Below are positions 3,816-39,759 of a stretch of 51,810 nucleotides of DNA, one piece after another; within the stretch, counting starts at the first letter, position 1, and every line of letters starts with the position of its first letter. Below the pieces are notes generated by a model, which worked only from the letters and a program-made list of their open reading frames with translations, made no database searches and had not been told where the DNA came from. Origin of the DNA: an uncultured bacterium (GTDB taxonomy: Bacteria; Chloroflexota; Dehalococcoidia; UBA2979); assembly GCA_964011795.1 (NCBI GenBank), contig CAXGQC010000001.1, positions 1-51,810 of the forward strand. The letters are read 5' to 3'. The position numbers and the translations under genes were made by a program.

Positions 3816-6215
3816 TCAGTCAGACGGTGGGATTTCTCCAATCACCCCGTCTCGACGAAGTGTCTCCAATGTCTCACTATCCATCCCAAGCTCACCACCA
3901 AGTATCTCGTTGTTATGTTGACCAAGGGTCGGTGCAGTGCGGCGATAGGTCACCGGAGTTAATTCCAGGCGAATGGCATTCCCCGGGTAGCGGCGGAGAC
4001 CTACATCTGGATGAGGCAGCTCAGCCCAGAAGTCCCGCTCGGCGAGCTGTCTATCCTCAACGAGGTCACGTGCGTCGGAGACCACCGCTGCTATTATCCC
4101 TGCTGCCTGTAACCGCGCCATCAAAGAGTGGGGGCTGAAAGAGCGGGTGTAGTTAGCGATAAGAGTATCAAGTTCTTCGTGTCGAGCATGCCGGTCCTCG
4201 CGGGTCAGTGCCGTAAGTTCGGAGTCTAAATCTGCAAGCGTCGCGAGCGCACGCCACTCCTCATTCGAAGTTACTGATATAGCAATCCAGCGGTCATCCC
4301 CGGCACACGGGTACAGCCCTTGAGGCGCGTTGAATGGATCTCGATTACCCATTCGTTCGCGATTTCCCCCCCTGACCTGTGCCCCTAGAAGCTCCTCACC
4401 GACAAACGAACCCATAGCCTCGATCATTGCTATTTCTATCGAACGTCCAGCGTGATTTGGGTCAGCCTCCCTGTCTCTAAGTGCGATTAGCAGAGCCGAA
4501 ACTGAGTTCATTCCAGCAACGGGATCTGGCCACGCAATGCCTGATCGATAGGGGCCGGTGTCGAGATAACCCATCATCGATGACAGTCCAGCACCAGCCT
4601 CGATCAGCGGACCCAGTGCAGTTCGCTCACTATCAGGGCCAGTACTGCCATAACCAGGCATCGCCGCATAGATAATCGACGGGTTGAGTATTTTCAGCTG
4701 CTCGAAATCAAAGCCAAGTTGAGGCATGACGCGAGGGCTGAAATTCTCGATCACTATGTCTGCCTCAGCGACCAATTCTGCAAATAGCCCGCGGCCACGT
4801 TCATCGCGAAAGTTAAGAGTGACCGAGCGACGGTTGCGGTGTAGCTTGTTGAAGCCACCAAAGCGGTTCCATGGTCGCTCGCCAATCTCATTTTCCGGGT
4901 AGAGATGACTGACGAAGGCAGCTGAATCTGGCACGTCCCGAGGTCCTCTGTTGAAAATCGCTTCAATCGAAATCACGTCAGCACCGAGGTCACCAAGCAT
5001 CCGGCCAGCCCACGGCCCTGCCCAAACACGGGTGAGGTCCAGAATGCGTATCCCTTCTAAAGGGCCATCTGCCGGCAGTGCCTCGTGTTTTCCAGCGTGC
5101 ACGTCGCTGAAGTCAGACCAACTGATACTTTCATCAGGTGTCGATGGTGGCCGTGGGTCAGGATCACGGTCACTGATCCAGAAGGGACCACGCGGGATCT
5201 GCAGTGGGGGACTACCATTGATTTCACGCCAATAGTCGCGAAATGAGAGCTGAGGGTCATCCAGGAGCTGGAGCATTGTCGGGACCGGTCCAACCGGCGC
5301 AAAAACACTACGACCGATAGCGATGATTTCCTCGGCTGTATGTTCCATCAGCCATGGAATAAATGCTTCATCAAACTCGTCCTTGTGGGCCCCTCGCGCG
5401 TAGTCATCCTTGAAGCGTGGATCTTCTGCTATTTCGGTCAGACCTGCGAGGGTGAGGAAATCCATAAGCTTCACACCAGAGGCAAGGCTGAGCTGTACAT
5501 ACCCATCACTACATGGATATACCCCTACAGGATGCCATGACCCTGGTTGGCGATTGCCTTCGCGCTTGAGGATGTGGGCGCCGTGTGTCCACATCGTCGT
5601 TGTATGTTGATGGAGCGTCGCCGATCCTTCGAAATGTGAAATCTCGACGATCTGCCCCCGCCCGGTGAGATCTTGCACACGTAGTGCCGCCATCGTCCCT
5701 ATAAAACCATGGGTACCAGCTTGGTAAGCCATGTGCAGGCCAGGCCGTCGAATAGGCTCACGTGAGGGTTCTCCGTTCGGGTAGAGTTGTCCACCAATCG
5801 CCTCATCAGTAAATAAATTCGAACGGTAATTAGAGTAGGGACCAGAACTTCCGAAAGGAGAAATACGAGCACTAACCAGTCGCATATTATTCGCAATATC
5901 AACACGAGAGATCAGTGGTTCTGGGGAAGAACTTTCAATCACTGCATCCGCCTCGACCAACAGTGACATCAACCCCGCATGGTCATTCTGATCAACGAAT
6001 ATCGATTGTTTTGAAGTATTGAGATAAGCCCAGGTGGTACCTACTACGTCACCGTTGGGTAGCGTCCATGGTTCGCCCTCGGTACGCAACGGATCACCAT
6101 CAAGTGGCTCTACCTTGATCACTGTCGCCCCATGATCCGCAAACATTTTGGCCGTGTACGCGCCAGCCGCAGAACCAGCAATTTCAACGATACGTAAGTC
6201 CTCAAACTGTTTCAT
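3816..6215 (-). CDS. two-domain family III (CaiB/BaiF) CoA-transferase fusion, 799 aa
   Basis: Two full family III domains. The N-domain has LRIVEIAGSAAGAYTAKMFADHGATVIKVEP...LNTSKQSI. The C-domain starts about aa 386 with IRILDLTRVWAGPWAGRMLGDLGADVISIE...PWNRFGGFNKLHRNRRSVTLN. Confidence 0.9.
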   Translation of the reverse strand: MKQFEDLRIVEIAGSAAGAYTAKMFADHGATVIKVEPLDGDPLRTEGEPWTLPNGDVVGTTWAYLNTSKQSIFVDQNDHAGLMSLLVEADAVIESSSPEPLISRVDIANNMRLVSARISPFGSSGPYSNYRSNLFTDEAIGGQLYPNGEPSREPIRRPGLHMAYQAGTHGFIGTMAALRVQDLTGRGQIVEISHFEGSATLHQHTTTMWTHGAHILKREGNRQPGSWHPVGVYPCSDGYVQLSLASGVKLMDFLTLAGLTEIAEDPRFKDDYARGAHKDEFDEAFIPWLMEHTAEEIIAIGRSVFAPVGPVPTMLQLLDDPQLSFRDYWREINGSPPLQIPRGPFWISDRDPDPRPPSTPDESISWSDFSDVHAGKHEALPADGPLEGIRILDLTRVWAGPWAGRMLGDLGADVISIEAIFNRGPRDVPDSAAFVSHLYPENEIGERPWNRFGGFNKLHRNRRSVTLNFRDERGRGLFAELVAEADIVIENFSPRVMPQLGFDFEQLKILNPSIIYAAMPGYGSTGPDSERTALGPLIEAGAGLSSMMGYLDTGPYRSGIAWPDPVAGMNSVSALLIALRDREADPNHAGRSIEIAMIEAMGSFVGEELLGAQVRGGNRERMGNRDPFNAPQGLYPCAGDDRWIAISVTSNEEWRALATLADLDSELTALTREDRHARHEELDTLIANYTRSFSPHSLMARLQAAGIIAAVVSDARDLVEDRQLAERDFWAELPHPDVGLRRYPGNAIRLELTPVTYRRTAPTLGQHNNEILGGELGMDSETLETLRRDGVIGEIPPSD

Positions 6216-24613: not shown

Positions 24614-25828
24614 ATGGAAACAGTTGGGCCATTAGCGGGACTACGTGTCCTCGAAATCGGAGACTTTATATCGGTCGGCTATGCGGGCAAGTTACTCGCT
24701 GATCTTGGTGCCGATGTTATAAAAATTGAAGACCCTATCGATGGCGATTCTGTTCGCGGTCATGGACCATTTCCAGATGATATTGTGCACCTTGAAAAAA
24801 GTGGACTACATCTTTTCCTCAATACGAATAAGAAAAGTCTGACACTTGACTATATGTCCGTCAAAGGGAGACAGATACTAGATAAGCTCATACCGCACAC
24901 AGACCTGATCATCAGCAATAATACTCATCAGGAGATACAGGATTACTCCCTCGACTATGCGTCACTGTCGCGAAACAACCCGCAACTGAGCGTCAGTTCT
25001 ATCACTGTCTTTGGATACGACACGCCCTATAGGGACTGGCTTGGCACCGCGCTGACTGCTACAGCTGCTTCGGGAGCTCCAACGAAAATAGGACATCCCG
25101 AAAAAGCTCCCTTATGGCTCCCTTACTGCGCGGCAGACTTTCATGGTGGGGTGCACGGGGCTATCGCGGCTTTATTGGCATTGAGGATGGGGAAAATATC
25201 TGGTCAGGGCCATCACGCGTGGATCTCTACTGTCGAAGTCATCGCAAGTTACTTAAATGGCTCTGGCGTGCCGCACTTCGTCTTCAATGGTGGACTGGCA
25301 TCCCGTGACGGTACGCACCGGAGTGGATTCTACCCGTGGCAGGTTGTACCGGCCGCTGACGGTTACATGGAAGTAATCACTATGGTTGATGATCAGTGGA
25401 ACCGATTTACCAAACTGATGGGAAATCCAGACTGGGCAAAAGACGAGCGTCTTCGAGACCGCTGGACATCGTTTGAATGGCATGAAGAGCTAGACGCATA
25501 TTGGCACCCTTGGCTGAAAGAAAGAACGCGTGAAGAATTATTTGAAATTTTCTCGGAGCATAGAATCCCATTCCAGCCGGTTAATCGCATCGATGAGGTA
25601 GTAGCGAGTGAGCACCTTGAAACGCGTGATTTCTGGCAGACGGTCGAGCACCCCGTGATGGGAACATACACAACACTTGGGGCGCCCTATAAATTCTCAG
25701 AAACACCATGGCACATATATCGACCAGCGCCTCTATTAGGGCAGCACAACCAAGAAATTCTTACGAATCTAGTGGGTCTATCTGAATACGAACAGGAGAG
25801 ATTAAGAGACAGTGGAGTAATCGTATGA
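24614..25828 (+). CDS. family III CoA-transferase (alpha-type of pair 1)
   Basis: Contains LRVLEIGDFISVGYAGKLLADLGADVIKIEDP and LNTNKKSLTLD. Confidence 0.9.
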   Translation: METVGPLAGLRVLEIGDFISVGYAGKLLADLGADVIKIEDPIDGDSVRGHGPFPDDIVHLEKSGLHLFLNTNKKSLTLDYMSVKGRQILDKLIPHTDLIISNNTHQEIQDYSLDYASLSRNNPQLSVSSITVFGYDTPYRDWLGTALTATAASGAPTKIGHPEKAPLWLPYCAADFHGGVHGAIAALLALRMGKISGQGHHAWISTVEVIASYLNGSGVPHFVFNGGLASRDGTHRSGFYPWQVVPAADGYMEVITMVDDQWNRFTKLMGNPDWAKDERLRDRWTSFEWHEELDAYWHPWLKERTREELFEIFSEHRIPFQPVNRIDEVVASEHLETRDFWQTVEHPVMGTYTTLGAPYKFSETPWHIYRPAPLLGQHNQEILTNLVGLSEYEQERLRDSGVIV

Positions 25829-27072
25829 GCATGGAAACGCTGGGGCCTCTTTCGGGGATTCGAGTGCTCGATCATGGGCACGTGTGGGCCGGGCCTTTAC
25901 TAGGGATGAGTTTTAAAGATATGGGAGCTGAGGTAATAAAAATTCAGTCGCCAAGCGGGAATTCTGGAGTCTCCATGGGCGGACGTGGAATGCCGGGAAC
26001 CACTGCCGGTGGTGACGTCGAAGAACTCGATCCTATGGGATTCCATGCTTTCGACCGGGGCAAGAAAAGTCTGACGCTTAATCTCCAGTCTCCAGAGGGT
26101 GTCGAAATTTACAAGCGGCTGGTCGCAAAAACAGATGTAATTGTTGAAAACTTCTCCGCTCGAGTCATGCCCGCGTTAGGTCTGGCATACGAGGTCTTAT
26201 CCGAAATCAATCCACGAATAATTCTTGCGTCGTTATCTGCTTCAGGTGCCACGGAAGGTCCATGGAGAGACCTTGTCACCTACGGGCCATCACTCGCAGC
26301 GTTATACGGAATAAAAAGTGTGCTCGGATACCACGACTCGGAACATCCTCAGGAAGACCAAGCTGATCTCGATCCTACGGCCGCAGGCCACGCATTTTTT
26401 GCGACTCTCGCGGCTCTCGAAGCTCGAGACAGAACGGGTAAAGGTCAGCATCTAGATATCGCACAAGGAGAGGCATCTATCCAAAGAATAGGTGAGCCCA
26501 TTATGGACTATCTCCTTACAGGGCGAATCGCCGGTCCTCAGGGAAATCGTTATCCAGGGATGGCTCCGCACGGCTTTTATCGCTGTAGTGGAGATGACAG
26601 TTGGATATCAATTTCTATCCGTGATGAAGATGAATGGACTCGATTAATTGAGTTTTGCGGAGAAATGGTACCGGCAATAAGAGACGAACGATTTTCCGCC
26701 CTGAGTGACCGCCTTACCTTTCAGGACGAGTTGGATTCCATACTTGAGCGTTGGACACTCAATTATGAATCATGGGATCTCACACGACAACTGCAAAAAA
26801 TCAGAATTCCTGCTTATCCAGTGATGGGGGCCATTGAACTAGCAGCAGACGAAAACTTTAACGCGCTCAATCAATCGAATCTTGTGATGCGCAATACGAC
26901 ATACTCAAAAGACGCTATCTATCGCGGGGTGGTCTGGAAACTCGATGACGGCTGGGGTGAAATATCGGGCTCACTCCCAAAAGCCGGGGCCGACAACAAT
27001 GACATCTTGATTGACCTGCTAGGGTATGACGGAAATACTGTTAAGGACTTCGAGATGCGTGGTGTTATCTGA
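25825..27072 (+). CDS. family III CoA-transferase (beta-type of pair 1)
   Basis: Contains IRVLDHGHVWAGPLLGMSFKDMGAEVIKIQ. ATGA overlap with the upstream paralogue. Confidence 0.9.
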   Translation: MSMETLGPLSGIRVLDHGHVWAGPLLGMSFKDMGAEVIKIQSPSGNSGVSMGGRGMPGTTAGGDVEELDPMGFHAFDRGKKSLTLNLQSPEGVEIYKRLVAKTDVIVENFSARVMPALGLAYEVLSEINPRIILASLSASGATEGPWRDLVTYGPSLAALYGIKSVLGYHDSEHPQEDQADLDPTAAGHAFFATLAALEARDRTGKGQHLDIAQGEASIQRIGEPIMDYLLTGRIAGPQGNRYPGMAPHGFYRCSGDDSWISISIRDEDEWTRLIEFCGEMVPAIRDERFSALSDRLTFQDELDSILERWTLNYESWDLTRQLQKIRIPAYPVMGAIELAADENFNALNQSNLVMRNTTYSKDAIYRGVVWKLDDGWGEISGSLPKAGADNNDILIDLLGYDGNTVKDFEMRGVI

Positions 27073-27989: not shown

Positions 27990-29108
27990 ATGGAAGGCAA
28001 TCCACTACACACACGGCTTTGCGAAGAATACGGTTGTGAAATACCGGTAGTCGCATTTGCTCATACAAAAGATGTTATTGCGGCAGTTTCGAATGCTGGT
28101 GGTATAGGTATCCTCGGGGCGACCGGCCTAAAACCAGAGGAACTCCGATCAGATATTGCATGGATTAGGGACAAGATTGGTGACAAGCCGTTCGGCGTCG
28201 ATCTTCTTGTGCCAGCTTCATTTGTTGAAGGTAATCGCGAAGATTTAGACGAAATGATCCCCGACGAGCATCGGGAATTTGTAACACACATTAAGTCGGT
28301 TTCAGGTGCTCCTGATTCGCCACCACCGAGCGATATTGACCCGACTTACTCGGGTTATGAAAACCTGCTCGAGCGATCTAGGCAACAGTTAGATGTCTTA
28401 TTTGAGGAAAAAGTACCCATATTTGCCTCAGGTCTAGGAAGCCCCGCTTTCATCATTGAACGGGCTCATCAAGAGGGTATGAAAGTCTGGGGACTCGTTG
28501 GACTTCCTCGACAGGCCCGCAGACAGATTGAAGCAGGCGTGGATGTTGTAGTCGCCCAAGGTTATGACTCGGGCGGGCACAGTGGAACCGTGGGCACCTT
28601 CACCCTGGTACCGGAAGTCGTAAAAATGGCGGAAGGCACAGACACGTTAGTGCTGACAGCGGGTGGAGTATCTAGCGGTAAACATCTTGCAGCTTCCATT
28701 GCTATGGGTTCAGCCGGAGTCTGGACAGGCACTATCTGGCTAGCTACGCATGAATCAGAGACTGCCATGTTCCTAAAACAACGAATAATTGATTCAAAAG
28801 TAGAGGATGCAGTCCAGTCCAGGGCTATGTCTGGCAAACCAATCCGACAACTCAGATCACGATGGTCAGATATCTGGAAAGAGGACGGAGCTCCTGATAC
28901 GCTCCCCATGCCGCTTCAGGGTATGCTCGTGAATGATGTGCTCAGGGATATTAAGGAAGCCAATCTCGAAGATTGGATGACTACACCAGCTGGTCAAGCA
29001 ATCGTTGGTATTGACGCGATTAAACCGGCCGCTGAGGTAGTGTATGACATGGCTGATGAGGCACTCGAACTCTTTGAGCGTGCTACTGAAACGTCAGCCA
29101 CCGCTTAA
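27990..29108 (+). CDS. nitronate monooxygenase / NPD-like FMN-dependent oxidoreductase
   Basis: Contains AGGIGILG and QGYDSGGHSG. 372 aa. AAGGAG SD upstream. Confidence 0.85.
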   Translation: MEGNPLHTRLCEEYGCEIPVVAFAHTKDVIAAVSNAGGIGILGATGLKPEELRSDIAWIRDKIGDKPFGVDLLVPASFVEGNREDLDEMIPDEHREFVTHIKSVSGAPDSPPPSDIDPTYSGYENLLERSRQQLDVLFEEKVPIFASGLGSPAFIIERAHQEGMKVWGLVGLPRQARRQIEAGVDVVVAQGYDSGGHSGTVGTFTLVPEVVKMAEGTDTLVLTAGGVSSGKHLAASIAMGSAGVWTGTIWLATHESETAMFLKQRIIDSKVEDAVQSRAMSGKPIRQLRSRWSDIWKEDGAPDTLPMPLQGMLVNDVLRDIKEANLEDWMTTPAGQAIVGIDAIKPAAEVVYDMADEALELFERATETSATA

Positions 29109-31260: not shown

Positions 31261-31920
31261 GTGAGCTCTGATATCCAACTGGAATCCCCGAGACAATACC
31301 GGCCAGATGGTGGTTCTGTTATCGAGATGCATGCCCATAGCTCAGATAAATCACTCGATAGTGGGGTGAGTGTGGAGAAACTCGTAGAACAAGCAGCTGC
31401 CAGAGGACTAGATGGCATCTGCCTAACTGAGCACAACGCACTATGGCCTGAGGAAGATACTCGGCGACTTAGCGAAATCTTCGAGATTAACGTGCTTCCT
31501 GCAATCGAGTTAGGTACGAATTTTGGTCATATTCTCGCGTATGGTTTCTCACGATATCGACCTCAACTACTCATGATGGATCACCTAATTAAGAGTGCCG
31601 AGGAAGAGGGTGTTGCACTAATCGTGGCACATCCGATGCGGTCAACGGGCACCGCACGCAGGCCGTCTAGCGAGGAAATACAACGCTGGTTCACTGGCAT
31701 TGAAGCAGTCAATGGTGATCATTCAGACAGTGATGACGGCTACTACGTGAGACTGGCACAAGAACTAGGTGTCGTCGCGATTGGCGGTTCCGACGCGCAT
31801 TCGGTTCAAGCGGTTGGACGGGCAGCCACCATATTCCCAACGGAAATCAAAACAATAAGCGATCTTGTTTTTGCACTGCAGCAAAGAAATGCATCGCCCT
31901 TAGATCTGAGGATCAGCTGA
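31261..31920 (+). CDS. PHP-domain metal-dependent phosphoesterase
   Basis: Contains EMHAHSSDKSLDS...GLDGICLTEHN...AHP...GGSDAHS. The GTG start is uncertain. Confidence 0.75.
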   Translation: MSSDIQLESPRQYRPDGGSVIEMHAHSSDKSLDSGVSVEKLVEQAAARGLDGICLTEHNALWPEEDTRRLSEIFEINVLPAIELGTNFGHILAYGFSRYRPQLLMMDHLIKSAEEEGVALIVAHPMRSTGTARRPSSEEIQRWFTGIEAVNGDHSDSDDGYYVRLAQELGVVAIGGSDAHSVQAVGRAATIFPTEIKTISDLVFALQQRNASPLDLRIS

Positions 31921-31929
31921 TTTTCAGGT

Positions 31930-34900
31930 CTACCAAGCGTCGATGAACGGTCGTTTCTTGCCTGATCTCACCGGTGGTGACTTTGCAGCCTTAAGCGTTC
32001 CGGCAATCCACGCTCTAGATTCAGATGGGTCAATTGTGTCATCGAAACCAAAGTTCATGCCAGTATTTAATGCTTTGCCACGCTCATACGCGCGAGCCAC
32101 CATCGCCTCATATTTTTCGAGTCGCTCTACAGGGTCTTCAATCGAGGCAAGTTCATCGCGATATCCTAGCTTTACCGACCCTTCCAAACCCATGCCACCA
32201 AATTCCCCGGTTGGCCACGACACAGTAAATTGAGGCTGTCGATAATTGCCACCAGTCATAGCTATCGCACCGAGTCCATAGGCTTTCCGCAAAATAATTG
32301 ACATGAAAGTTGTCTCAATATTTGCTCCATGCAGGAATAGACGGTTCGCGTGGCGCACCAGAGCTGTCTTTTCTACTTCTGGGCCGACCATGATTCCAGG
32401 AGTATCAACCAAAGTGAGTAACGGAAGATCAAACGCATCACAAAGCTGCATAAATCGAGCCGCCTTGTCAGCACCATCTGAGTCAATAGCGCCGCCAAGA
32501 TGGCCAGGATTGTTGGCGATAATCCCCAAACTTTTCCCTTCCACTCGTACCAGGGCCGTGACCATTCCAATTCCAAAGTCAGGACGTATTTCAAGAATCG
32601 AATCCACATCTGCAAGCGTATGAATCACGTCCCGAACGTTGTATACACGCAACCTATTCTCCGGAACAATCTGGCGCATTTCTCGTTGATCAGGAGCCTC
32701 CCAATCATTAATTGGCCCCTGGAAGTAAGACAGGTATTTCTTAGCTACTGTGACTGCTTCTTCCTCGTCTTTAACAGATATATCTACTACGCCGTTAGGT
32801 ATTTGTATTTCCATTGGCCCTATATCTTCAGGAGCAAAAATGCCTAGGCCACCCCCTTCGATCATTGCTGGACCACCCATACCGATATTTGATCCTTCTG
32901 TGGCGATAATTACATCACAGCAGGCAAGTAACGAAGCATTCCCTGCAAAACAACGCCCAGTCGTGATCCCAACCATCGGAACAAGGCCACTCAAAGTGGA
33001 AAAAGAAGCAAAGGTAGAACTACCACCAGCTGCGTGTAGACCGTCATCGCCAGGACGACCACCGCCACCTTCGGCGAATAAGACAAGAGGTAGTCTGGAA
33101 TTTCGAGCGACCTCAATCATACGGTCTGTTTTTTGATGATTTCTATTCCCTTGTGTACCTGCCAGCACCATATAGTCATATGCGATGGTCGCGACCATAC
33201 TTTCAGGATCGGAAAATAGATCTCCATTCACACTTCCGATACCGGTGATCATTCCGTCACGGGGAGTCTTTGCAATCAACTCGTCTAGGCTACGTCGTGA
33301 GAATTGGTTAGCGAGGACCAAAGGTCCGTACTCCAAAAATGTTCCCGTATCAAACAAATCTTCAACATTTTCCTGAACTGTCCTCAGTAGTCGAGCATGA
33401 CGTTTGGACACTGCCTCTTCTCTGTTCGCATCCAGTGCCGCTGCTCGACGCGTCAAAATTTCTTCGAGATCCGGACGTATAAAATCCAGATCGATAGAAC
33501 TCTCTCCTTCAATCAAACCGCCAATAACCTCGTGCTCTTCAATAATCATCAGCGCATGATTCTCCCAAAGAGTATCTCCACGACCCACGTTTATAGCACT
33601 TATCGAACCACTCATATGAGCTCGTATCTCATGTTGCATCTTCATCGATTCCATCACTGCGAGGAGTTGTCCAGCCTGCACTTCCTGGCCAACAGACACC
33701 TCAATTGATACGACCGTACCTTGCAGAGGTGATCTTACCGATCCTGGAAGGTCACCCTGTCCAGTACGATCTTCGAGACTTGATGTGTCCTGGCCTCGAC
33801 TGGCTTGCATCCCGTATTCCAACACAGCCAACGGGTCGTCAGAATCGATTGACGCTCCAGCTTGCTCACTTAGCTCGCCTCTCTGAAACGGAGTTGAGTC
33901 CGTGAGTTCTTGTGCTAGCTGGACGAGTTCGGCGGCCTCCAAATCGACGAAACGCGTATGTATCTCTCCGCTCAAAAATGAGGGATGGACCAATAGAGAC
34001 CGCAAAAAGGAAATATTAGTATCGACACCTTCGACATCGAACTCAGCGAGCGCAGTTTCAACTCGTTTCACAGTCGCATCGAAATCGTCTGAACTGGAGT
34101 ATCCAATTACTTTGGCTAACAGTGAGTCAAAACTTGTGGCTGTCTGGTACCCGTTATAGCCGAATGTATCAGTCCGTACTCCTCTACCTGATGGTGGGTT
34201 AAATACAGATAATGTTCCAGCAGAGGGAATTACACTACCATCCTCATTGATCTTCTCCATGTTCACTCTCGCCTGTATGGCGTAACCCCTAGCCGGAACG
34301 ATCTGTTCCTGGCGTAGCCCGAGTGAGTCGAGACTTGCACCTGAAGCGATCTGTAACTGAGTCTGTACTAAGTCAATTCCGGTGACTTCCTCAGTGACTG
34401 TATGCTCCACCTGTAGTCTTGGATTCACCTCAATGAAAAAGAACTCTTCCGAATTTTCTTGGTGTGTCGAAACTAAAAATTCGACCGTGCCCAAATTTTC
34501 GTAACTTGCGGCCCTCCCAAGTGTCACAGCTGCGTCAAGTAATGCGTCACGAGAAGTCGTGGACAAAAAGGGCGCAGGGGCGATCTCAAGGATTTTTTGA
34601 TGCCGCCTTTGCACCGAGCAGTCTCGCTCCCAGAAATGAGATATCGACCCCGCTGAGTCTCCCGCTACCTGCACTTCGATATGACGAACGTTGGGGATAT
34701 ATCTCTCAATATAGAGATCTCCATTTCCAAATGATGCTGCGGCTTCTGCCTGTGCCCCTCGAAAAGCCTGCTCAACATCACTGTCCTTATCAAGCATACG
34801 GACCCCGCGTCCACCTCCACCGTGGACTGCTTTGAGGATTGCCGACTGGCTCTCATCTAATGATCCGAGAAATTCAGTCGCCTCTGCCGCCGTTACCGGA

Positions 34901-35316
34901 TGGTCTAGACCTGGCAAAACAGGTATTCCGTGCTGAACCGCAAGCTTTCTTGCCGACACCTTGTCACCAAATACATCCAGTGAAGACGGCGCTGGACCTA
35001 CAAATTTCATCCCAGCTGCTTCACACTTCGTAGCAAATTCTGAATTCTCACTGAGAAACCCATATCCTGGGTGGACTGCATCACATCCACTCTGCAGACC
35101 AACTTGCACTATTTGATCTACATCCAAATAAGGTAGCGCGCCCTGGCCCTCAAGTAGCAGCGCTTCATCAGCCCTCTGCCAATGGATCGAATTAATGTCT
35201 GCTTCAGAATATATCGAGCAAGTCTGCACTCCTAATTCCTTGGCAGCTCTGATAATACGGACAGCTATTTCACCACGATTGGCTATTAGTAATTTCTGCA
35301 CTTCAATATCCCCCAT
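31930..35316 (-). CDS. single-chain biotin-dependent acyl-CoA carboxylase (BC - linker - BCCP - carboxyltransferase)
   Basis: The N-terminal biotin carboxylase has KLLIANRGEIAVRIIRAAKELG and an ATP-grasp region. The biotinyl motif is AVMESMKMQHEI. The C-terminal ~530 aa form an acyl-CoA carboxyltransferase (PccB/AccD5-like) domain. The ATG at 35316 is preferred over the TTG at 35322. Confidence 0.9.
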   Translation of the reverse strand: MGDIEVQKLLIANRGEIAVRIIRAAKELGVQTCSIYSEADINSIHWQRADEALLLEGQGALPYLDVDQIVQVGLQSGCDAVHPGYGFLSENSEFATKCEAAGMKFVGPAPSSLDVFGDKVSARKLAVQHGIPVLPGLDHPVTAAEATEFLGSLDESQSAILKAVHGGGGRGVRMLDKDSDVEQAFRGAQAEAAASFGNGDLYIERYIPNVRHIEVQVAGDSAGSISHFWERDCSVQRRHQKILEIAPAPFLSTTSRDALLDAAVTLGRAASYENLGTVEFLVSTHQENSEEFFFIEVNPRLQVEHTVTEEVTGIDLVQTQLQIASGASLDSLGLRQEQIVPARGYAIQARVNMEKINEDGSVIPSAGTLSVFNPPSGRGVRTDTFGYNGYQTATSFDSLLAKVIGYSSSDDFDATVKRVETALAEFDVEGVDTNISFLRSLLVHPSFLSGEIHTRFVDLEAAELVQLAQELTDSTPFQRGELSEQAGASIDSDDPLAVLEYGMQASRGQDTSSLEDRTGQGDLPGSVRSPLQGTVVSIEVSVGQEVQAGQLLAVMESMKMQHEIRAHMSGSISAINVGRGDTLWENHALMIIEEHEVIGGLIEGESSIDLDFIRPDLEEILTRRAAALDANREEAVSKRHARLLRTVQENVEDLFDTGTFLEYGPLVLANQFSRRSLDELIAKTPRDGMITGIGSVNGDLFSDPESMVATIAYDYMVLAGTQGNRNHQKTDRMIEVARNSRLPLVLFAEGGGGRPGDDGLHAAGGSSTFASFSTLSGLVPMVGITTGRCFAGNASLLACCDVIIATEGSNIGMGGPAMIEGGGLGIFAPEDIGPMEIQIPNGVVDISVKDEEEAVTVAKKYLSYFQGPINDWEAPDQREMRQIVPENRLRVYNVRDVIHTLADVDSILEIRPDFGIGMVTALVRVEGKSLGIIANNPGHLGGAIDSDGADKAARFMQLCDAFDLPLLTLVDTPGIMVGPEVEKTALVRHANRLFLHGANIETTFMSIILRKAYGLGAIAMTGGNYRQPQFTVSWPTGEFGGMGLEGSVKLGYRDELASIEDPVERLEKYEAMVARAYERGKALNTGMNFGFDDTIDPSESRAWIAGTLKAAKSPPVRSGKKRPFIDAW

Positions 35317-35458
35317 CAACAACGAATATATGAACTATGTTGCACCGATGCTGAACACTTATCTCACATAGTGGAGTCTTTAGCAAATCTTCTCGGAAAC
35401 AGTTACACTCGCACGACAATAATCCAATAAAGTAATGGAAACACGGTGAGGTTGACTA

Positions 35459-36319
35459 ATGACTAACACTATCGACAGTATTCAGGATATTTCGAACGGA
35501 GATGTAATCGCCGAGTTAGACGATGAAGGTGTGCTCCTCACCACGTTCAATCGGCCTGAACAGATGAATGCTCTAAATCAAACACTTGGACTTGGACTTG
35601 GAGCTGCACTCAAGTTTGCTTCAGAAGAGGACTCAGTAAGAGCCATGGTGATCACGGGAAGTGGCCGAGCATTTTGTGCTGGCGCAGAAATTAGTGGAGA
35701 CAGAACTCCAGCCGAATCAGGTGAAGCACCAAGTGATGCGGCACCAACCGTTAGTCGCCATGAAAGACTTGTTCATCACAACCGTTCTGTACAGACAGCA
35801 CTAGGATTTATAAAGTCTGACGTCCCGATAATAGGCGCAATTAATGGCGCGACTGCTGGAGCAGGCTTTGGTATGGCAATGGCCTGCGATGTTCGCATTG
35901 CAGGAAAGTCGGCTCGTATGGGACCCATTTTTTTCAAACGCGGGATAGTGTCTGACTATGGAGTCCTTTGGTTTCTACCCAGAGTCGTCGGGAGTGCCAA
36001 GGCGTTCGAGGTGATGTATCACAGTGACGTCATGCCTTCAGAAAAGCTCTTAGAAATGGGACTAGTGAACCGTGTCGTCGAAGATGATGACCTCCTTACT
36101 GAGGCCTTAGCATATGCCAGAAAGGTAGCAGCAGGACCTCCATTAGCTGCATCAGAAATAAGGAGACTCCTGCATTCTTCACTAGATGCCACCGGGTCAG
36201 CCGAGCAATGGCTAATCCAAGAATGGAACGCTCAGGCAAGCCTACTAAAAACAACTGATGCCAAAGAAGGATTTCGCTCATTTGTAGAGAGGCGAGACCC
36301 TGACTTTAGGGGTTACTAG
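35459..36319 (+). CDS. enoyl-CoA hydratase/isomerase family protein
   Basis: Contains VITGSGRAFCAGAEI, GAINGATAGAGFGMAMACD and a C-terminal FVERRDPDF. Confidence 0.9.
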   Translation: MTNTIDSIQDISNGDVIAELDDEGVLLTTFNRPEQMNALNQTLGLGLGAALKFASEEDSVRAMVITGSGRAFCAGAEISGDRTPAESGEAPSDAAPTVSRHERLVHHNRSVQTALGFIKSDVPIIGAINGATAGAGFGMAMACDVRIAGKSARMGPIFFKRGIVSDYGVLWFLPRVVGSAKAFEVMYHSDVMPSEKLLEMGLVNRVVEDDDLLTEALAYARKVAAGPPLAASEIRRLLHSSLDATGSAEQWLIQEWNAQASLLKTTDAKEGFRSFVERRDPDFRGY

Positions 36320-36359
36320 GGACAAGTAAGTACGTGGTCCCTTACAGACGGTTTTAAAT

Positions 36360-37568
36360 ATGAGCAGACAACTATTCGAAGGTATCAAAGTCTTAGAACT
36401 GGGGACCATGGTTGGAGTTCCCTATTCTGGCAAACTCTTTGCAGACTACGGGGCAGAAGTGGTTAAGATAGAGCCACCAGAGGGCGATCCCTCCCGCTTA
36501 GAAGGGCCATTTCTCAACGACATCCCAGATAAAGAAGCCTCAGCTCTTTTTCTGCATCTGAATACGAGCAAAAGGTCCATAACATGCGATCTCTTTTCAT
36601 CAGCTGGGCGAGACATAGTCCGCACCTTAATTGAGCAACATGACATAGTGATTGAAAATTTTCCGCCGGGAACTCTCGATTCTTTAGGTTTGGGTTTCCA
36701 AGCGTTCGCGAAGGAAAAGCCTGACCTTGTATTAGGATCATTGACACCCTTCGGACAAACCGGTCCATGGAAGGATTTCAAGGGTTCAGAACTCGTCCTA
36801 CAAGCTATGGCCGGACCAATGCATATAAACGGGCACAGTTCACGTGAACCAATAAAACTCGGTGGGAATCTAGCTCACTATCACGCTGGATTAGCTTTGA
36901 CATATGCTTGCGCCCTGGCTCGACTAAGGGTCGAACGAGGAGGCTCGGGTGAGCATATAGACCAATCAGTATATGAAGCACAAGCCGGCTTCCGTGACAG
37001 AAGAACTCCGGGTCTCACGGCAGCATCTTACAGCGGCAAAAGTAGTAAAAGAGGAGGTCTTTCATCGCGGGTTGCCTCAGGACCACGACCGGCAAGTGAT
37101 GGGTATGCGAATATTTTCGCTGGGGCGAGTAAACACGTTCCTGAATTCTTAAGACTCATTGGCCGACCTGATCTGGCTGAACAACCAGATGCAGAAAAAC
37201 CATTTACTCAAATGGGAGAACAGTTCATAGAGGAACTTGAAGGTGCCTATGGAATTTGGCTCATTGAACGGACAAAGCGCGAGGCCGTTGCAGCGACCCA
37301 AGCAATCGGAATCCTGGGTGGAGCTGTTTTAACTATTGAGGATCTTCTCGATGATCCGCATTACCAAGAGCGTGACGTATGGGAAACCGTTGACCATCCT
37401 GTTACGGGTTCTATGCGTTATCCAGGAAGACATTTCGTGACGTCAGGCGCCACCAGACAACAAATGAACCGCGCACCACTACTCGGTGAACACACTGTGG
37501 AAATTCTCTCAAATATCGGATATTCGAATTCAGACTTAGTTCAGCTACGTCGGGCGAAGGTGATTTAG
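36360..37568 (+). CDS. family III CoA-transferase (alpha-type of pair 2)
   Basis: Contains IKVLELGTMVGVPYSGKLFADYGAEVVKIEPPEGDP and LNTSKRSI. Closely resembles the N-domain of the 799-aa fusion. Confidence 0.9.
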   Translation: MSRQLFEGIKVLELGTMVGVPYSGKLFADYGAEVVKIEPPEGDPSRLEGPFLNDIPDKEASALFLHLNTSKRSITCDLFSSAGRDIVRTLIEQHDIVIENFPPGTLDSLGLGFQAFAKEKPDLVLGSLTPFGQTGPWKDFKGSELVLQAMAGPMHINGHSSREPIKLGGNLAHYHAGLALTYACALARLRVERGGSGEHIDQSVYEAQAGFRDRRTPGLTAASYSGKSSKRGGLSSRVASGPRPASDGYANIFAGASKHVPEFLRLIGRPDLAEQPDAEKPFTQMGEQFIEELEGAYGIWLIERTKREAVAATQAIGILGGAVLTIEDLLDDPHYQERDVWETVDHPVTGSMRYPGRHFVTSGATRQQMNRAPLLGEHTVEILSNIGYSNSDLVQLRRAKVI

Positions 37569-37569
37569 T

Positions 37570-38922
37570 ATGAGCGACTCACAAAGCTCCCGAATGCTTC
37601 CTCTTGACGGCGTAAAAGTTGCTGCAGTGACAGTTGTATGGGCGGGACCACACTGCACTCAGGTCTTGGCTGAGTGGGGGGCCGAGGTCATTAGAGTAGA
37701 GCCAATTGACGCTATCCAGCCCTACTCGAGAGGGGCCGAGCGGATTGCGACGAAGGAGCAGGTAATCGAGAGCGTAAAGAATGGACTAACTCTGTTCGCT
37801 TATCCCGACTATGACCCTGGTCAAGAACCATGGAACAGGAATCCTGGTTTCAACTCTCATAGCCGTAATAAAAAGTCTATGGCCTGCAACATCATGACCC
37901 CCGAAGGGAAAATAGCTTTCTTGAAATTAATCAAAGAAGTCGACGTGTTAGTCGAAAACAATGTCCCTACAACTATTGAAAAGGCTGGGATCACCTACGA
38001 AACTCTCAAGGAAATAAATCCTCGTTTGATCATGCTTCGCATGCCCGCTTACGGGCTTTCAGGTCCGTACAAAGGGTACAGAGCATTCGGCACGCATGTA
38101 GAGGCAATGATTGGTCACCACTACATTCGTGGCTACCCCGACGGAACCCCTGATGAAACGGGCGAGGCTTTCACCGCCGATGCCTTCGCTGGACTTCTGG
38201 GAGCTACAGCGATCACTGCTGCTCTGCGCTATCGAGATACCACAGGTGAAGGTCAGCAAATTGAGATGCCACTTGCAGAAGGATTTCTACCAAATCTTGG
38301 GGAATTCATACTTGACTTTGAAATGAATGGTCGAGTCGCAGGACCTCAAGGAAATACACATCACTCGCACGCGCCTCACGGAGTCTTCCCAACATCAGGG
38401 GATGATCAATGGATAGCAATTGACGTATCAGAAGATGAAGAATGGTTTTCGCTTTGCGAGGTATTAGGTGCCGATACTCTCGCTAATGATGCTCGATTCC
38501 ACACCCAGTTATCAAGATTTCAAAATCGCGCGGTCTTGCATGATGAGCTGAACAAATACACAATCAAGCACCAAAAGTTCGACCTTTTTATAGAACTGCA
38601 GCGGTCTGGAGTATGTGCAGGGCCGGTCACAGATGATATGGAACTCCTCGAATCTCCCCAGTTGATCGATCGTGGTTTCTTTGAGGAACTCGAATCACCA
38701 GTCATCGGTAAACACAGATATCCGGGGATCATGACCAAGTGGGTTGGCACACCAAACTCAATCCGCACTCCTCCACCAAGACTGGGGGAGCACACCGAGG
38801 AAATATATAAACAGTTACTGGGCTACAGTGATGAGGAATATAACAAGCTACTCGAGGAGGGTCAGGTCGGTGACAGGTATCCAGACCATCTCCTACCGGA
38901 CTTCCTCAAAACGTCAAAATAA
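37570..38922 (+). CDS. family III CoA-transferase (beta-type of pair 2)
   Basis: Contains VTVVWAGPHCTQVLAEWGAEVIRVEP and PWNRNPGFNSHSRNKKSM. Resembles the C-domain of the fusion. Starts 1 nt after the upstream stop. Confidence 0.9.
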   Translation: MSDSQSSRMLPLDGVKVAAVTVVWAGPHCTQVLAEWGAEVIRVEPIDAIQPYSRGAERIATKEQVIESVKNGLTLFAYPDYDPGQEPWNRNPGFNSHSRNKKSMACNIMTPEGKIAFLKLIKEVDVLVENNVPTTIEKAGITYETLKEINPRLIMLRMPAYGLSGPYKGYRAFGTHVEAMIGHHYIRGYPDGTPDETGEAFTADAFAGLLGATAITAALRYRDTTGEGQQIEMPLAEGFLPNLGEFILDFEMNGRVAGPQGNTHHSHAPHGVFPTSGDDQWIAIDVSEDEEWFSLCEVLGADTLANDARFHTQLSRFQNRAVLHDELNKYTIKHQKFDLFIELQRSGVCAGPVTDDMELLESPQLIDRGFFEELESPVIGKHRYPGIMTKWVGTPNSIRTPPPRLGEHTEEIYKQLLGYSDEEYNKLLEEGQVGDRYPDHLLPDFLKTSK

Positions 38923-38937
38923 TCAGAAACTAGTAAT

Positions 38938-39759
38938 TTGCTGACGGAAATAATTGAACCCTTGCTTCTCATTTTCATTGGTGCAGCCATCGGTACATAT
39001 GCTGGTGCGATCGGGGCAGGGGGCGGGTTCCTGATCGCACCTTTTCTACTGTTCCGATATCCTACTGCGACTGCAGCGGAGATAACTGCCGCCTCGCTCT
39101 TATATGTAGTTGTCAATTCCGCTCTTCAGGTTTTAGTCGCATTCAAGGAAAATCGAATTGATGGCCGTCTGGTAGTGCTGCTTGCTGCGATAGGGGTACC
39201 AGCTGCGGTTGTGGGAGGAGCTACAACAGGATTAGTTCCCCGAGACTACTTCGCAGTTGGATTTGGCGTCTTCTTGGTACTAATCGGCATATACGTAATT
39301 GTCCGACCAACGGCAGTCCCGGAACCCACAACTGGCGACGGATGGCAAAGGAATATCAAAGACAGAAATGGGACTATCTTTCGGTTTAGGATTCCTCTAA
39401 TTCGTTCGGCATTAGCTCAGGCAGCTACCGCATTTTTCTCAGCCCTTGCGGGTATCGGCGGCGGGCCAATAGGAATGCCTGTAATGACTCGCGTGCAGAA
39501 AGTGCCTCATGAAATCGCGGTCCCAAGCATGCATCTACTAATATTTATCCAATCAATCTCTGTCACAGGCCTGCATATAGTGAATGGGGTAAACGGATCT
39601 CCTCTTGGTGATCTCCCATGGTTAGCAGCAGGCGTAATAATATCGGCTCCTCTAGCGGCCAAATTCCGTCGGATCAGTGGCGAGGGGAAATTAATGAGAG
39701 CTCTTGCGATTGGACTTATTGCCATCGGTGCAAGTGCGGTCTTCGATATTTTCAGATAA
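38938..39759 (+). CDS. TauE/SafE (TSUP, DUF81) family anion exporter
   Basis: Multi-TM protein with two GAIGAGGG / LAGIGGGP repeats typical of TSUP. TTG start, no nearby ATG. Confidence 0.75.
   Translation: MLTEIIEPLLLIFIGAAIGTYAGAIGAGGGFLIAPFLLFRYPTATAAEITAASLLYVVVNSALQVLVAFKENRIDGRLVVLLAAIGVPAAVVGGATTGLVPRDYFAVGFGVFLVLIGIYVIVRPTAVPEPTTGDGWQRNIKDRNGTIFRFRIPLIRSALAQAATAFFSALAGIGGGPIGMPVMTRVQKVPHEIAVPSMHLLIFIQSISVTGLHIVNGVNGSPLGDLPWLAAGVIISAPLAAKFRRISGEGKLMRALAIGLIAIGASAVFDIFR

Follow-up and report, generated by a model that had tools for sequence, protein, structure and literature searches.

A single-chain long-chain acyl-CoA carboxylase in a Dehalococcoidia genome that probably stands beside a crotonase gene by gene order only

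Introduction

We analysed a stretch of 51,810 nucleotides (hereafter the window; GenBank CAXGQC010000001.1), which is the whole of contig C1 of the Dehalococcoidia assembly GCA_964011795.1 (1.68 Mb, 209 contigs, 77% complete), with respect to a gene for a biotin-dependent acyl-CoA carboxylase. With a probability of roughly 80%, this gene codes for a typical representative of the single-chain LCC family (carboxylases of long-chain acyl-CoA), and its pairing with a divergently transcribed crotonase gene is incidental to gene order. A preliminary description of the locus had instead proposed the logic of the leucine and acyclic-terpene (Liu/Atu) pathways, in which the carboxylase would carboxylate the beta-methyl group of a beta-branched enoyl-CoA in gamma position, the neighbouring gene product would hydrate the resulting compound and a lyase would remove the branch as acetate.

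The closest public relatives of the genome are marine metagenome-assembled genomes named Dehalococcoidia bacterium UBA2979 and Chloroflexota RS381 (Red Sea). About 50 genes for CaiB-type (family-III) CoA-transferases and about 33 crotonase genes were counted in its 1.68 Mb, an abundance as described for SAR202 (PMC5395668). The carboxylase gene itself is monocistronic and wedged between two operons of CoA-ester metabolism.

The carboxylase gene and its domains

The open reading frame spans 31930..35322 on the minus strand and yields 1128 amino acids (aa) if translated from the ATG at 35316. This start is ambiguous, since the ATG lacks a Shine-Dalgarno sequence and a GTG at 35301 is preceded by GGGGGA; alignments to the structure 4rcn, which bear on the choice, begin at about residue 8. 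The gene and its domains are the following:

31930..35316, minus strand: gene for the single-chain acyl-CoA carboxylase of the LCC family (1128 aa and stop codon), identified by open reading frame, Pfam and match to 4rcn
33943..35301, minus strand: biotin carboxylase (BC; ATP-grasp) domain, residues 6-458, PF00289 (Biotin_carb_N), PF02786 (CPSase_L_D2) and PF02785 (Biotin_carb_C)
33541..33738, minus strand: biotin carboxyl carrier protein (BCCP) domain (Biotin_lipoyl), residues 527-592, PF00364, aligned to LEAMKMQH of 4rcn
31969..33384, minus strand: carboxyltransferase (CT) domain (Carboxyl_trans), residues 645-1116, PF01039

Thus the preliminary description was right in seeing one chain of 1128 aa with BC, linker, biotinyl domain and full CT, as open reading frame and Pfam agree. 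The sequence AVMESMKMQHEI is present, with the biotinyl Lys559 at 33640..33642 within MESMKMQ, and in the CT domain FAEGGGGRPGDDG occupies residues 747-759 (33040..33078, minus strand). All of the BC motifs GDK, HGGGGRGV, RHQK and EVNPRLQVEH are found as well, which we take to carry the catalytic residues, as assigned from the E. coli biotin carboxylase. Against an 84%-identical orthologue in locus L016, the ratio of nonsynonymous to synonymous substitution rates (dN/dS) is 0.05 and dS is saturated. Since dN/dS is this low, the gene is real and under strong purifying selection; it is also intact.

Membership in the LCC family

The best solved relative of the carboxylase is 4rcn, the LCC of Mycobacterium avium subsp. 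paratuberculosis (E = 0, 1017 bits), which aligns over both halves of the chain (BC, 376 bits; BCCP-CT, 647 bits). It is followed by the Deinococcus single-chain carboxylase, represented by its CT (5fif, 576 bits) and its BC (5h80, 443 bits). Matches in the PDB and in the protein collection reached E = 0, thus the similarity is not due to chance. In the protein search at least 8000 proteins matched the query (8000 of 8000 scored candidates), the best 120 of them covering at least 99% of it with at least 56% identity. These 120 stem from several phyla, with Dehalococcoidia, Acidobacteriota, Binatus, Pseudomonadales, Rhodospirillaceae and others among the sources, so the earlier notion that single-chain forms are confined to a few actinobacteria does not hold. 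When 301 Chloroflexota genomes were searched, only three were listed with a full-length LCC match; as two candidates were scored per genome, this search is unsuited to counting paralogues.

Conservation within the family is high. Across 168 full-length members (median identity 59%), 415 of the 1128 positions are at least 90% conserved, and the carboxylase described here keeps 398 of these, its 17 deviations all falling outside the signature motifs. The CT segment FAEGGGGRPGD, which reads FAEGGGGRPGDTD in both 4rcn and 5fif, had been regarded as unusual and as a hint toward a different substrate. However, E-G-G-G-G-R-P-G-D is invariant in an alignment of eight diverse CT domains, and because the GGGGRPGD segment is a constant of the family, 4rcn and 5fif included, it is uninformative on the substrate of this carboxylase. 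The further family-invariant CT motifs GGPAM-EGGGLG and PGIMVGPE are kept too and occur also in 4rcn and 5fif. Judged by its sequence, the carboxylase is therefore a very typical member of a known and widespread family. We also observed that the C-terminal tail G-K-K-R-P-x-I-D-x-W (window 31930-31990) is nearly invariant in eight diverse LCC CT domains; the displayed alignment of 4rcn ends before this tail.

Type of the carboxyltransferase and expected reaction

To classify the CT we relied on the ranking of PDB bit scores, on our own CT tree and on a published tree (PMC6491548). Searching the PDB with the CT domain alone gave:

4rcn (LCC): 626 bits
5fif (LCC type): 578 bits
beta subunit of propionyl-CoA carboxylase (PCC), transcarboxylase 12S, methylmalonyl-CoA decarboxylase alpha: 180-221 bits
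AccD1: 143 bits
beta subunit of geranyl-CoA carboxylase (GCC): 127 bits
beta subunit of methylcrotonyl-CoA carboxylase (MCC): 97-116 bits
glutaconyl-CoA decarboxylase alpha: 50-62 bits

Carboxyltransferases outside the LCC type thus reach 221 bits at most, compared with 626 for 4rcn. In our own CT tree, obtained by a quick search and rooted with a PCC-type CT of the same genome, a very long branch separates this PCC-type CT from every LCC domain. In the published tree the LCC CT domains form their own group, apart from MCC and GCC (PMC6491548). The placement of the CT domain that had been proposed as a check hence came out, by score ranking and published tree, in favour of a separate LCC group, and the affinity to MCC or GCC that a Liu/Atu reading calls for was not recovered.

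The nearest carboxyltransferases outside the family are those of PCC-beta, 12S and the decarboxylase alpha subunit, which makes chemistry at the alpha-carbon the likeliest. Carboxylation of a saturated or otherwise ordinary acyl-CoA in alpha position is accordingly what we infer as the best reading, and gamma-carboxylation of an enoyl-CoA in the Liu/Atu mode appears unlikely from the CT comparison. By homology, the N-terminal ATP-grasp BC domain would use ATP and bicarbonate to carboxylate the biotin on Lys559 of the BCCP domain, which would then swing over to the C-terminal CT domain; the latter would pass the carboxyl group on to an acyl-CoA at its alpha-carbon and so yield an alkyl-malonyl-CoA. 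The holoenzyme is probably a homohexamer, an assembly that, like the alpha-carboxylation chemistry, is suggested by analogy with the relatives. As for substrates, the prototype single-chain LCC is reported to act on acyl-CoAs from C2 to C16, with a Km for palmitoyl-CoA 350-fold below that for acetyl-CoA (PMC6491548).

Other carboxylase genes in the genome

The genome holds a set of further carboxylase genes:

contig C29: accC and accB, side by side
contig C29: strongly PCC-like CT (736 bits to TIGR01117)
same genome: four further stand-alone CTs of the PCC type
contig C48: second full-length LCC, 56% identical
contig C78: third LCC, cut by the contig end
contig C178: LCC-type C-terminal fragment
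contig C13, 20027-21607: stand-alone LCC-type CT

The LCC paralogues fall in different parts of the family in the CT tree, and this spread indicates that they are old. At least three old LCC paralogues are thus present in this genome, distinct from the set of accB, accC and PCC-beta-type CT. Identity with a housekeeping acetyl-CoA carboxylase (ACC) or PCC was considered and rejected, as accC, accB and a PCC-beta-type CT are encoded separately and the LCC CT lies on a far branch. Given this separate set and the LCC paralogues, the carboxylase is not the housekeeping enzyme, and here the preliminary description, which had not taken it for the enzyme of fatty acid synthesis, agrees with our results.

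Three stand-alone CTs were compared with the PDB and all of them best match beta subunits of PCC or ACC; none of the three is of the MCC or GCC type, and the 77%-complete genome yielded no such CT. Nor did it yield the lyase gene that a Liu/Atu pathway would need and that was to be sought according to the preliminary description: the search for 3-hydroxy-3-methylglutaryl-CoA (HMG-CoA) lyase with PF00682 returned only two proteins, one LeuA-like and one CimA-like, with lengths of 509 and 562 aa.

An observation apart concerns stand-alone LCC-type CTs of about 525 aa, lacking BC and BCCP. Besides the one on contig C13, they occur in the metagenome loci L053, L055 and L090, and a partner that carries biotin is not obvious.

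The neighbouring crotonase and the intergenic region

Upstream of the carboxylase gene, on the opposite strand, lies the first gene of the adjoining operon:

35459..36319, plus strand: crotonase-family protein ECH3, PaaG-like, PF00378
35317..35458, no strand: divergent intergenic region between LCC and crotonase gene, 142 nucleotides (nt)

As to sequence and orientation, the shared divergent region of 142 nt is as it had been described. The identification of the neighbour as an enoyl-CoA hydratase was not confirmed. Aligned with the 28 other crotonase paralogues of the genome, ECH3 reads GAGFGMAM and GPIFFKRG, in the positions where the true hydratases among them show GGGFEMAL and GLPEPRVG; ECH3 thus has Gly and Ile/Phe at the two positions where hydratases carry their catalytic Glu residues. 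Its segment GIVSDYG has an Asp in register with the P-D-S-G of the PaaG-like subgroup, PaaG-type isomerases of Thermus and E. coli are among its nearest solved relatives, and many homologues of 45-57% identity are labelled 2-(1,2-epoxy-1,2-dihydrophenyl)acetyl-CoA isomerase (JGI). From these residues and relatives, ECH3 is more likely an isomerase-type crotonase (PaaG-like, Asp type) than a hydratase.

The 142-nt gap is weakly conserved against relatives of 83-85% identity. Neither a match to the sigma-70 consensus nor inverted or direct repeats were detected within it, the single patch that is conserved has no second occurrence in the window, and no shared operator was found. A regulator gene was not recognised in the window.

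The operon beside the carboxylase

ECH3 is followed on the same strand by two CoA-transferase genes, as had been noted before, and by a permease gene:

36360..37568, plus strand: CaiB3, family-III CoA-transferase, PF02515, His in place of the catalytic Asp
37570..38922, plus strand: CaiB4, family-III CoA-transferase, PF02515, catalytic Asp present
38938..39759, plus strand: TauE/SafE-family anion permease, PF01925, last specific gene of the crotonase/CoA-transferase operon

By assignment to N-type and C-type, CaiB3 and CaiB4 are the split form of a fused double CaiB. The genome has 11 fused double CaiBs (for example window 3816-6215, minus strand; C78:2315-4705; C13:13769-16192), and in every one of them the N half lacks the catalytic Asp and the C half has it, the former resembling CaiB1 and CaiB3 and the latter CaiB2 and CaiB4. 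Orthologues of CaiB3 and CaiB4 keep AHYHAG, lacking the Asp, and FTADAMAG, having it (FTADAxAG across orthologues). Several adjoining pairs of single CaiB genes show the same split with one partner devoid of the Asp; CaiB1 and CaiB2 of the window (24614-27072), unlike the fused double CaiBs, both possess it.

The same operon was found in the Chloroflexota contigs L116-L118 (window 35459-39759; L116 8001-12773; L118 8001-13221), at identities of 56% for ECH3, 50-56% for CaiB3 and 61% for CaiB4; the next-best paralogues in the own genome are no more than 32-39% identical. In each of the three contigs the operon is succeeded by an anion transporter gene, with pepP and nrdJ coming thereafter in L116 and L117. 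We noticed that the transporter has been replaced non-orthologously, being of the TauE family here and of the ArsB, CitMHS or Na-sulfate-symporter type in the other Chloroflexota. The gene content suggests that crotonase, both CaiBs and transporter form a unit that imports an organic anion and activates it with CoA.

Gene order around LCC genes

Whether the juxtaposition of carboxylase and crotonase has a meaning depends on its conservation. Relatives whose LCC is 83-96% identical keep the whole block, namely yaaA, nrdJ, pepP, tauE, CaiB4, CaiB3, ECH3 and, on the opposite strand, LCC, followed by PHP, etfA, etfB, NMO, SDR, CaiB2 and CaiB1. Since housekeeping genes are kept in this block too, its conservation amounts to plain collinearity only.

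Beyond these relatives, six more distant LCCs were examined, which represent five independent contexts. In P0070, LCC and a fused double CaiB are transcribed divergently, and a crotonase gene lies nearby. In the closely related loci P0029 and P0040 a crotonase gene lies directly upstream of LCC; these two crotonases share 87% identity, compared with just 32-34% to ECH3, and hence belong to an unrelated paralogue. P0006, P0072 and P0120 have no genes of CoA-ester metabolism beside LCC. Crotonases adjoining LCC in L031 and L032 were considered as orthologues of ECH3 and rejected: they are of the same Asp type, yet share 32-34% identity with it and find their best match in the own genome in another paralogue.

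A broader sample comprised 70 LCC loci from metagenomes, found with an LCC-specific CT alignment, whose neighbours were clustered and the top families named by Pfam. No fixed partner emerged, as no family occurs within three genes of LCC in more than 9 of the 70 loci. Within this distance we counted SDR in 9, CaiB in 8, luciferase-like monooxygenase in 7, PPIase-like proteins in 6, and alpha/beta hydrolase, DUF3604 and acyl-CoA dehydrogenase in 5 loci each. A crotonase gene adjoins LCC in three loci, one of which is a close relative of the window. Adjacency to CaiB or crotonase is scattered over the CT tree, and P0006, the sister of the window's clade, has neither; the orthologous crotonase operons in L116-L118 in turn have no LCC and no gene of the ETF/NMO block upstream. 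P0006 and these operons, all without the pairing, argue that the juxtaposition of LCC and crotonase arose within the genus-level lineage of this genome. It thus appears to be specific to that lineage and not a conserved functional unit.

Separately from this, DUF3604 was seen to recur near LCC in unrelated contigs (for example L059; L029, 7832-9709; L033, 20634-23216); it lies directly upstream of LCC in the P0072 locus and, weakly matched, about 7 kb downstream in P0120.

On its other side the carboxylase gene meets the end of the second operon:

31261..31920, plus strand: PHP-domain metallohydrolase, PF02811 and PF13263, end of the CoA-transferase/SDR/NMO/ETF operon

The PHP gene is convergent with the LCC gene, 9 nt separating the two stop codons, and this order is retained in close relatives only. 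Two further observations were made in the vicinity. The NMO-family flavoprotein (window 27990-29108) is 96-97% identical to its orthologues in genomes whose adjoining genes are 65-85% identical, and its dN/dS is 0.016 compared with 0.04-0.09 in those neighbours for which dS could be estimated; it is thus under unusually strong constraint. Furthermore, the longest open reading frame of pepP shares 142 nt with the end of the TauE-family gene (window 39618-39759), and pepP orthologues measure about 437 aa compared with 488 here, so the true start probably lies further downstream.

Discussion

Domain order, invariant motifs and CT type place the carboxylase within the LCC family, and we consider its crotonase neighbour a product of gene order. 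Several observations weigh against this interpretation. First, the LCC-type genes of this genome lie near CoA-transferase genes more often than expected; the paralogue on C78, for instance, overlaps a fused double CaiB of 796 aa by 4 nt. Second, CaiB is a recurrent neighbour of LCC elsewhere, both in the P0070 locus and within three genes in 8 of the 70 metagenome loci. Third, the predictions of alpha-carboxylation and of the substrate range derive from an enzyme with about half of its residues in common. Finally, a search of the 77%-complete assembly for a biotin-protein ligase (PF03099) gave no match, which is uninformative at that completeness; despite this missing match at least four genes for biotin-dependent carboxylases are present, and the ligase gene most likely resides in the unassembled 23%.

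One might speculate that the genes on both sides of the 142-nt gap form an activate-then-carboxylate unit: the permease would import an organic acid, CaiB3 and CaiB4 would load it with CoA as a heterodimer with one active site, the PaaG-like crotonase would shift or hydrate a double bond, and LCC would carboxylate the product. Despite saturated dS, every relative of 83-96% identity indeed retains the divergent layout, and CaiB3 and CaiB4 share the inactive-N, active-C arrangement of all 11 fused double CaiBs. The overlap on C78 amounts to translational coupling of LCC and CaiB, the divergent pair of P0070 has a crotonase nearby, and the frequency of 8 in 70 is probably above background. However, a genome of 1.68 Mb with about 50 CaiB genes and about 33 crotonase genes makes such proximity cheap, and it is weak evidence by itself. 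Moreover, the conserved order includes nrdJ and pepP and thus reflects collinearity, no LCC lies next to the orthologous operons in L116-L118, P0006 as the nearest LCC beyond the clade has neither CaiB nor crotonase beside it, and the intergenic region offers no shared operator or repeat. We therefore regard such a unit as unlikely, if worth bearing in mind.

A second scenario is a general-purpose carboxylase that acts on common short acyl-CoAs such as acetyl-, propionyl- and butyryl-CoA in anaplerosis or assimilation, independently of its neighbours. It would fit the unusual conservation across phyla (415 of 1128 positions at least 90% conserved), the lack of a fixed gene partner, as expected with one common substrate, and the acceptance of C2-C16 acyl-CoAs by the single-chain LCC (PMC6491548). 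Yet the genome already has the accB/accC pair, the strongly PCC-like CT on C29 and four further CTs of the PCC type; that a single small genome contains three old LCC paralogues speaks for different substrates, and the reported Km values favour long chains (PMC6491548). This scenario is improbable in our opinion.

The Liu/Atu-like bypass, for which the divergent arrangement of a carboxylase and a crotonase-family gene and the proposed degradation of branched and alicyclic acids by SAR202-type genomes (PMC5395668) could be adduced, is very hard to maintain, given a CT that scores higher with PCC-beta and 12S than with GCC-beta or MCC-beta and stands apart from MCC and GCC in the published tree (PMC6491548), a crotonase with a PaaG-type Asp and neither catalytic Glu, only LeuA-like and CimA-like matches to the lyase family in the 77%-complete genome, no MCC- or GCC-type enzyme among the three CTs compared, and an adjacency that is not conserved.

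A typical LCC whose crotonase neighbour is incidental thus remains our preferred interpretation. The enzyme is then an ordinary one, a further member of a large and highly conserved family with a solved structure, and the motif and the neighbour that look suggestive carry no information on its substrate. Of wider relevance is that SAR202-type genomes hold several old LCC paralogues beside a normal carboxylase. An assay could be guided by any lineage with a reliable association of LCC and a CoA-transferase, of which the locus described here is a weak example. If, against the odds as we see them, LCC and the divergent operon of PaaG-like crotonase, split CoA-transferase and anion permease were one catabolic unit for an imported organic acid, the single-chain LCC family, for which the literature searched reports no natural role, would gain a concrete physiological setting: CoA transfer followed by carboxylation.

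Comparison with known carboxylases

The name LCC is also applied to a mycobacterial complex of AccA3, AccD4, AccD5 and AccE5, which has this name and the carboxylation of long-chain acyl-CoAs in common with the enzyme described here; it is multi-subunit, serves mycolic acid synthesis and does not belong to the single-chain family (PMC13012033). MCC and GCC (3u9r_B, 5ikl_B) are members of the same superfamily of biotin-dependent acyl-CoA carboxylases, but they match the CT much more weakly (97-127 bits), consist of two subunits and gamma-carboxylate enoyl-CoAs. Their partners are hydratases with both Glu residues and HMG-CoA lyase, neither of which was seen at the LCC locus or in the 77%-complete genome, respectively. 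Closer are PCC-beta, 12S and methylmalonyl-CoA decarboxylase alpha (1vrg, 1on3, 1x0u, 3n6r_B), the nearest carboxyltransferases outside the LCC type, which differ in being separate subunits of alpha6beta6 or related complexes.

Within the single-chain family, the D. radiodurans carboxylase shares the signature motifs and matches in CT (5fif) and BC (5h80); of this enzyme only separate domains have been solved, and a reported substrate was not found in the literature searched. The prototype is the LCC of M. avium subsp. paratuberculosis, described by Tran et al. in 2015 (Nature 518:120, as cited through PMC6491548 and PMC4673880). From this prototype (4rcn) the carboxylase of the window differs in about half of its residues and in its host, a marine member of the Dehalococcoidia with at least three such genes. 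Both enzymes have in common the order BC-BCCP-CT in one chain of about 1100 aa, the biotinylation site MKMQH and the CT motifs FAEGGGGRPGD and GMGGPAMIEGGGLG.

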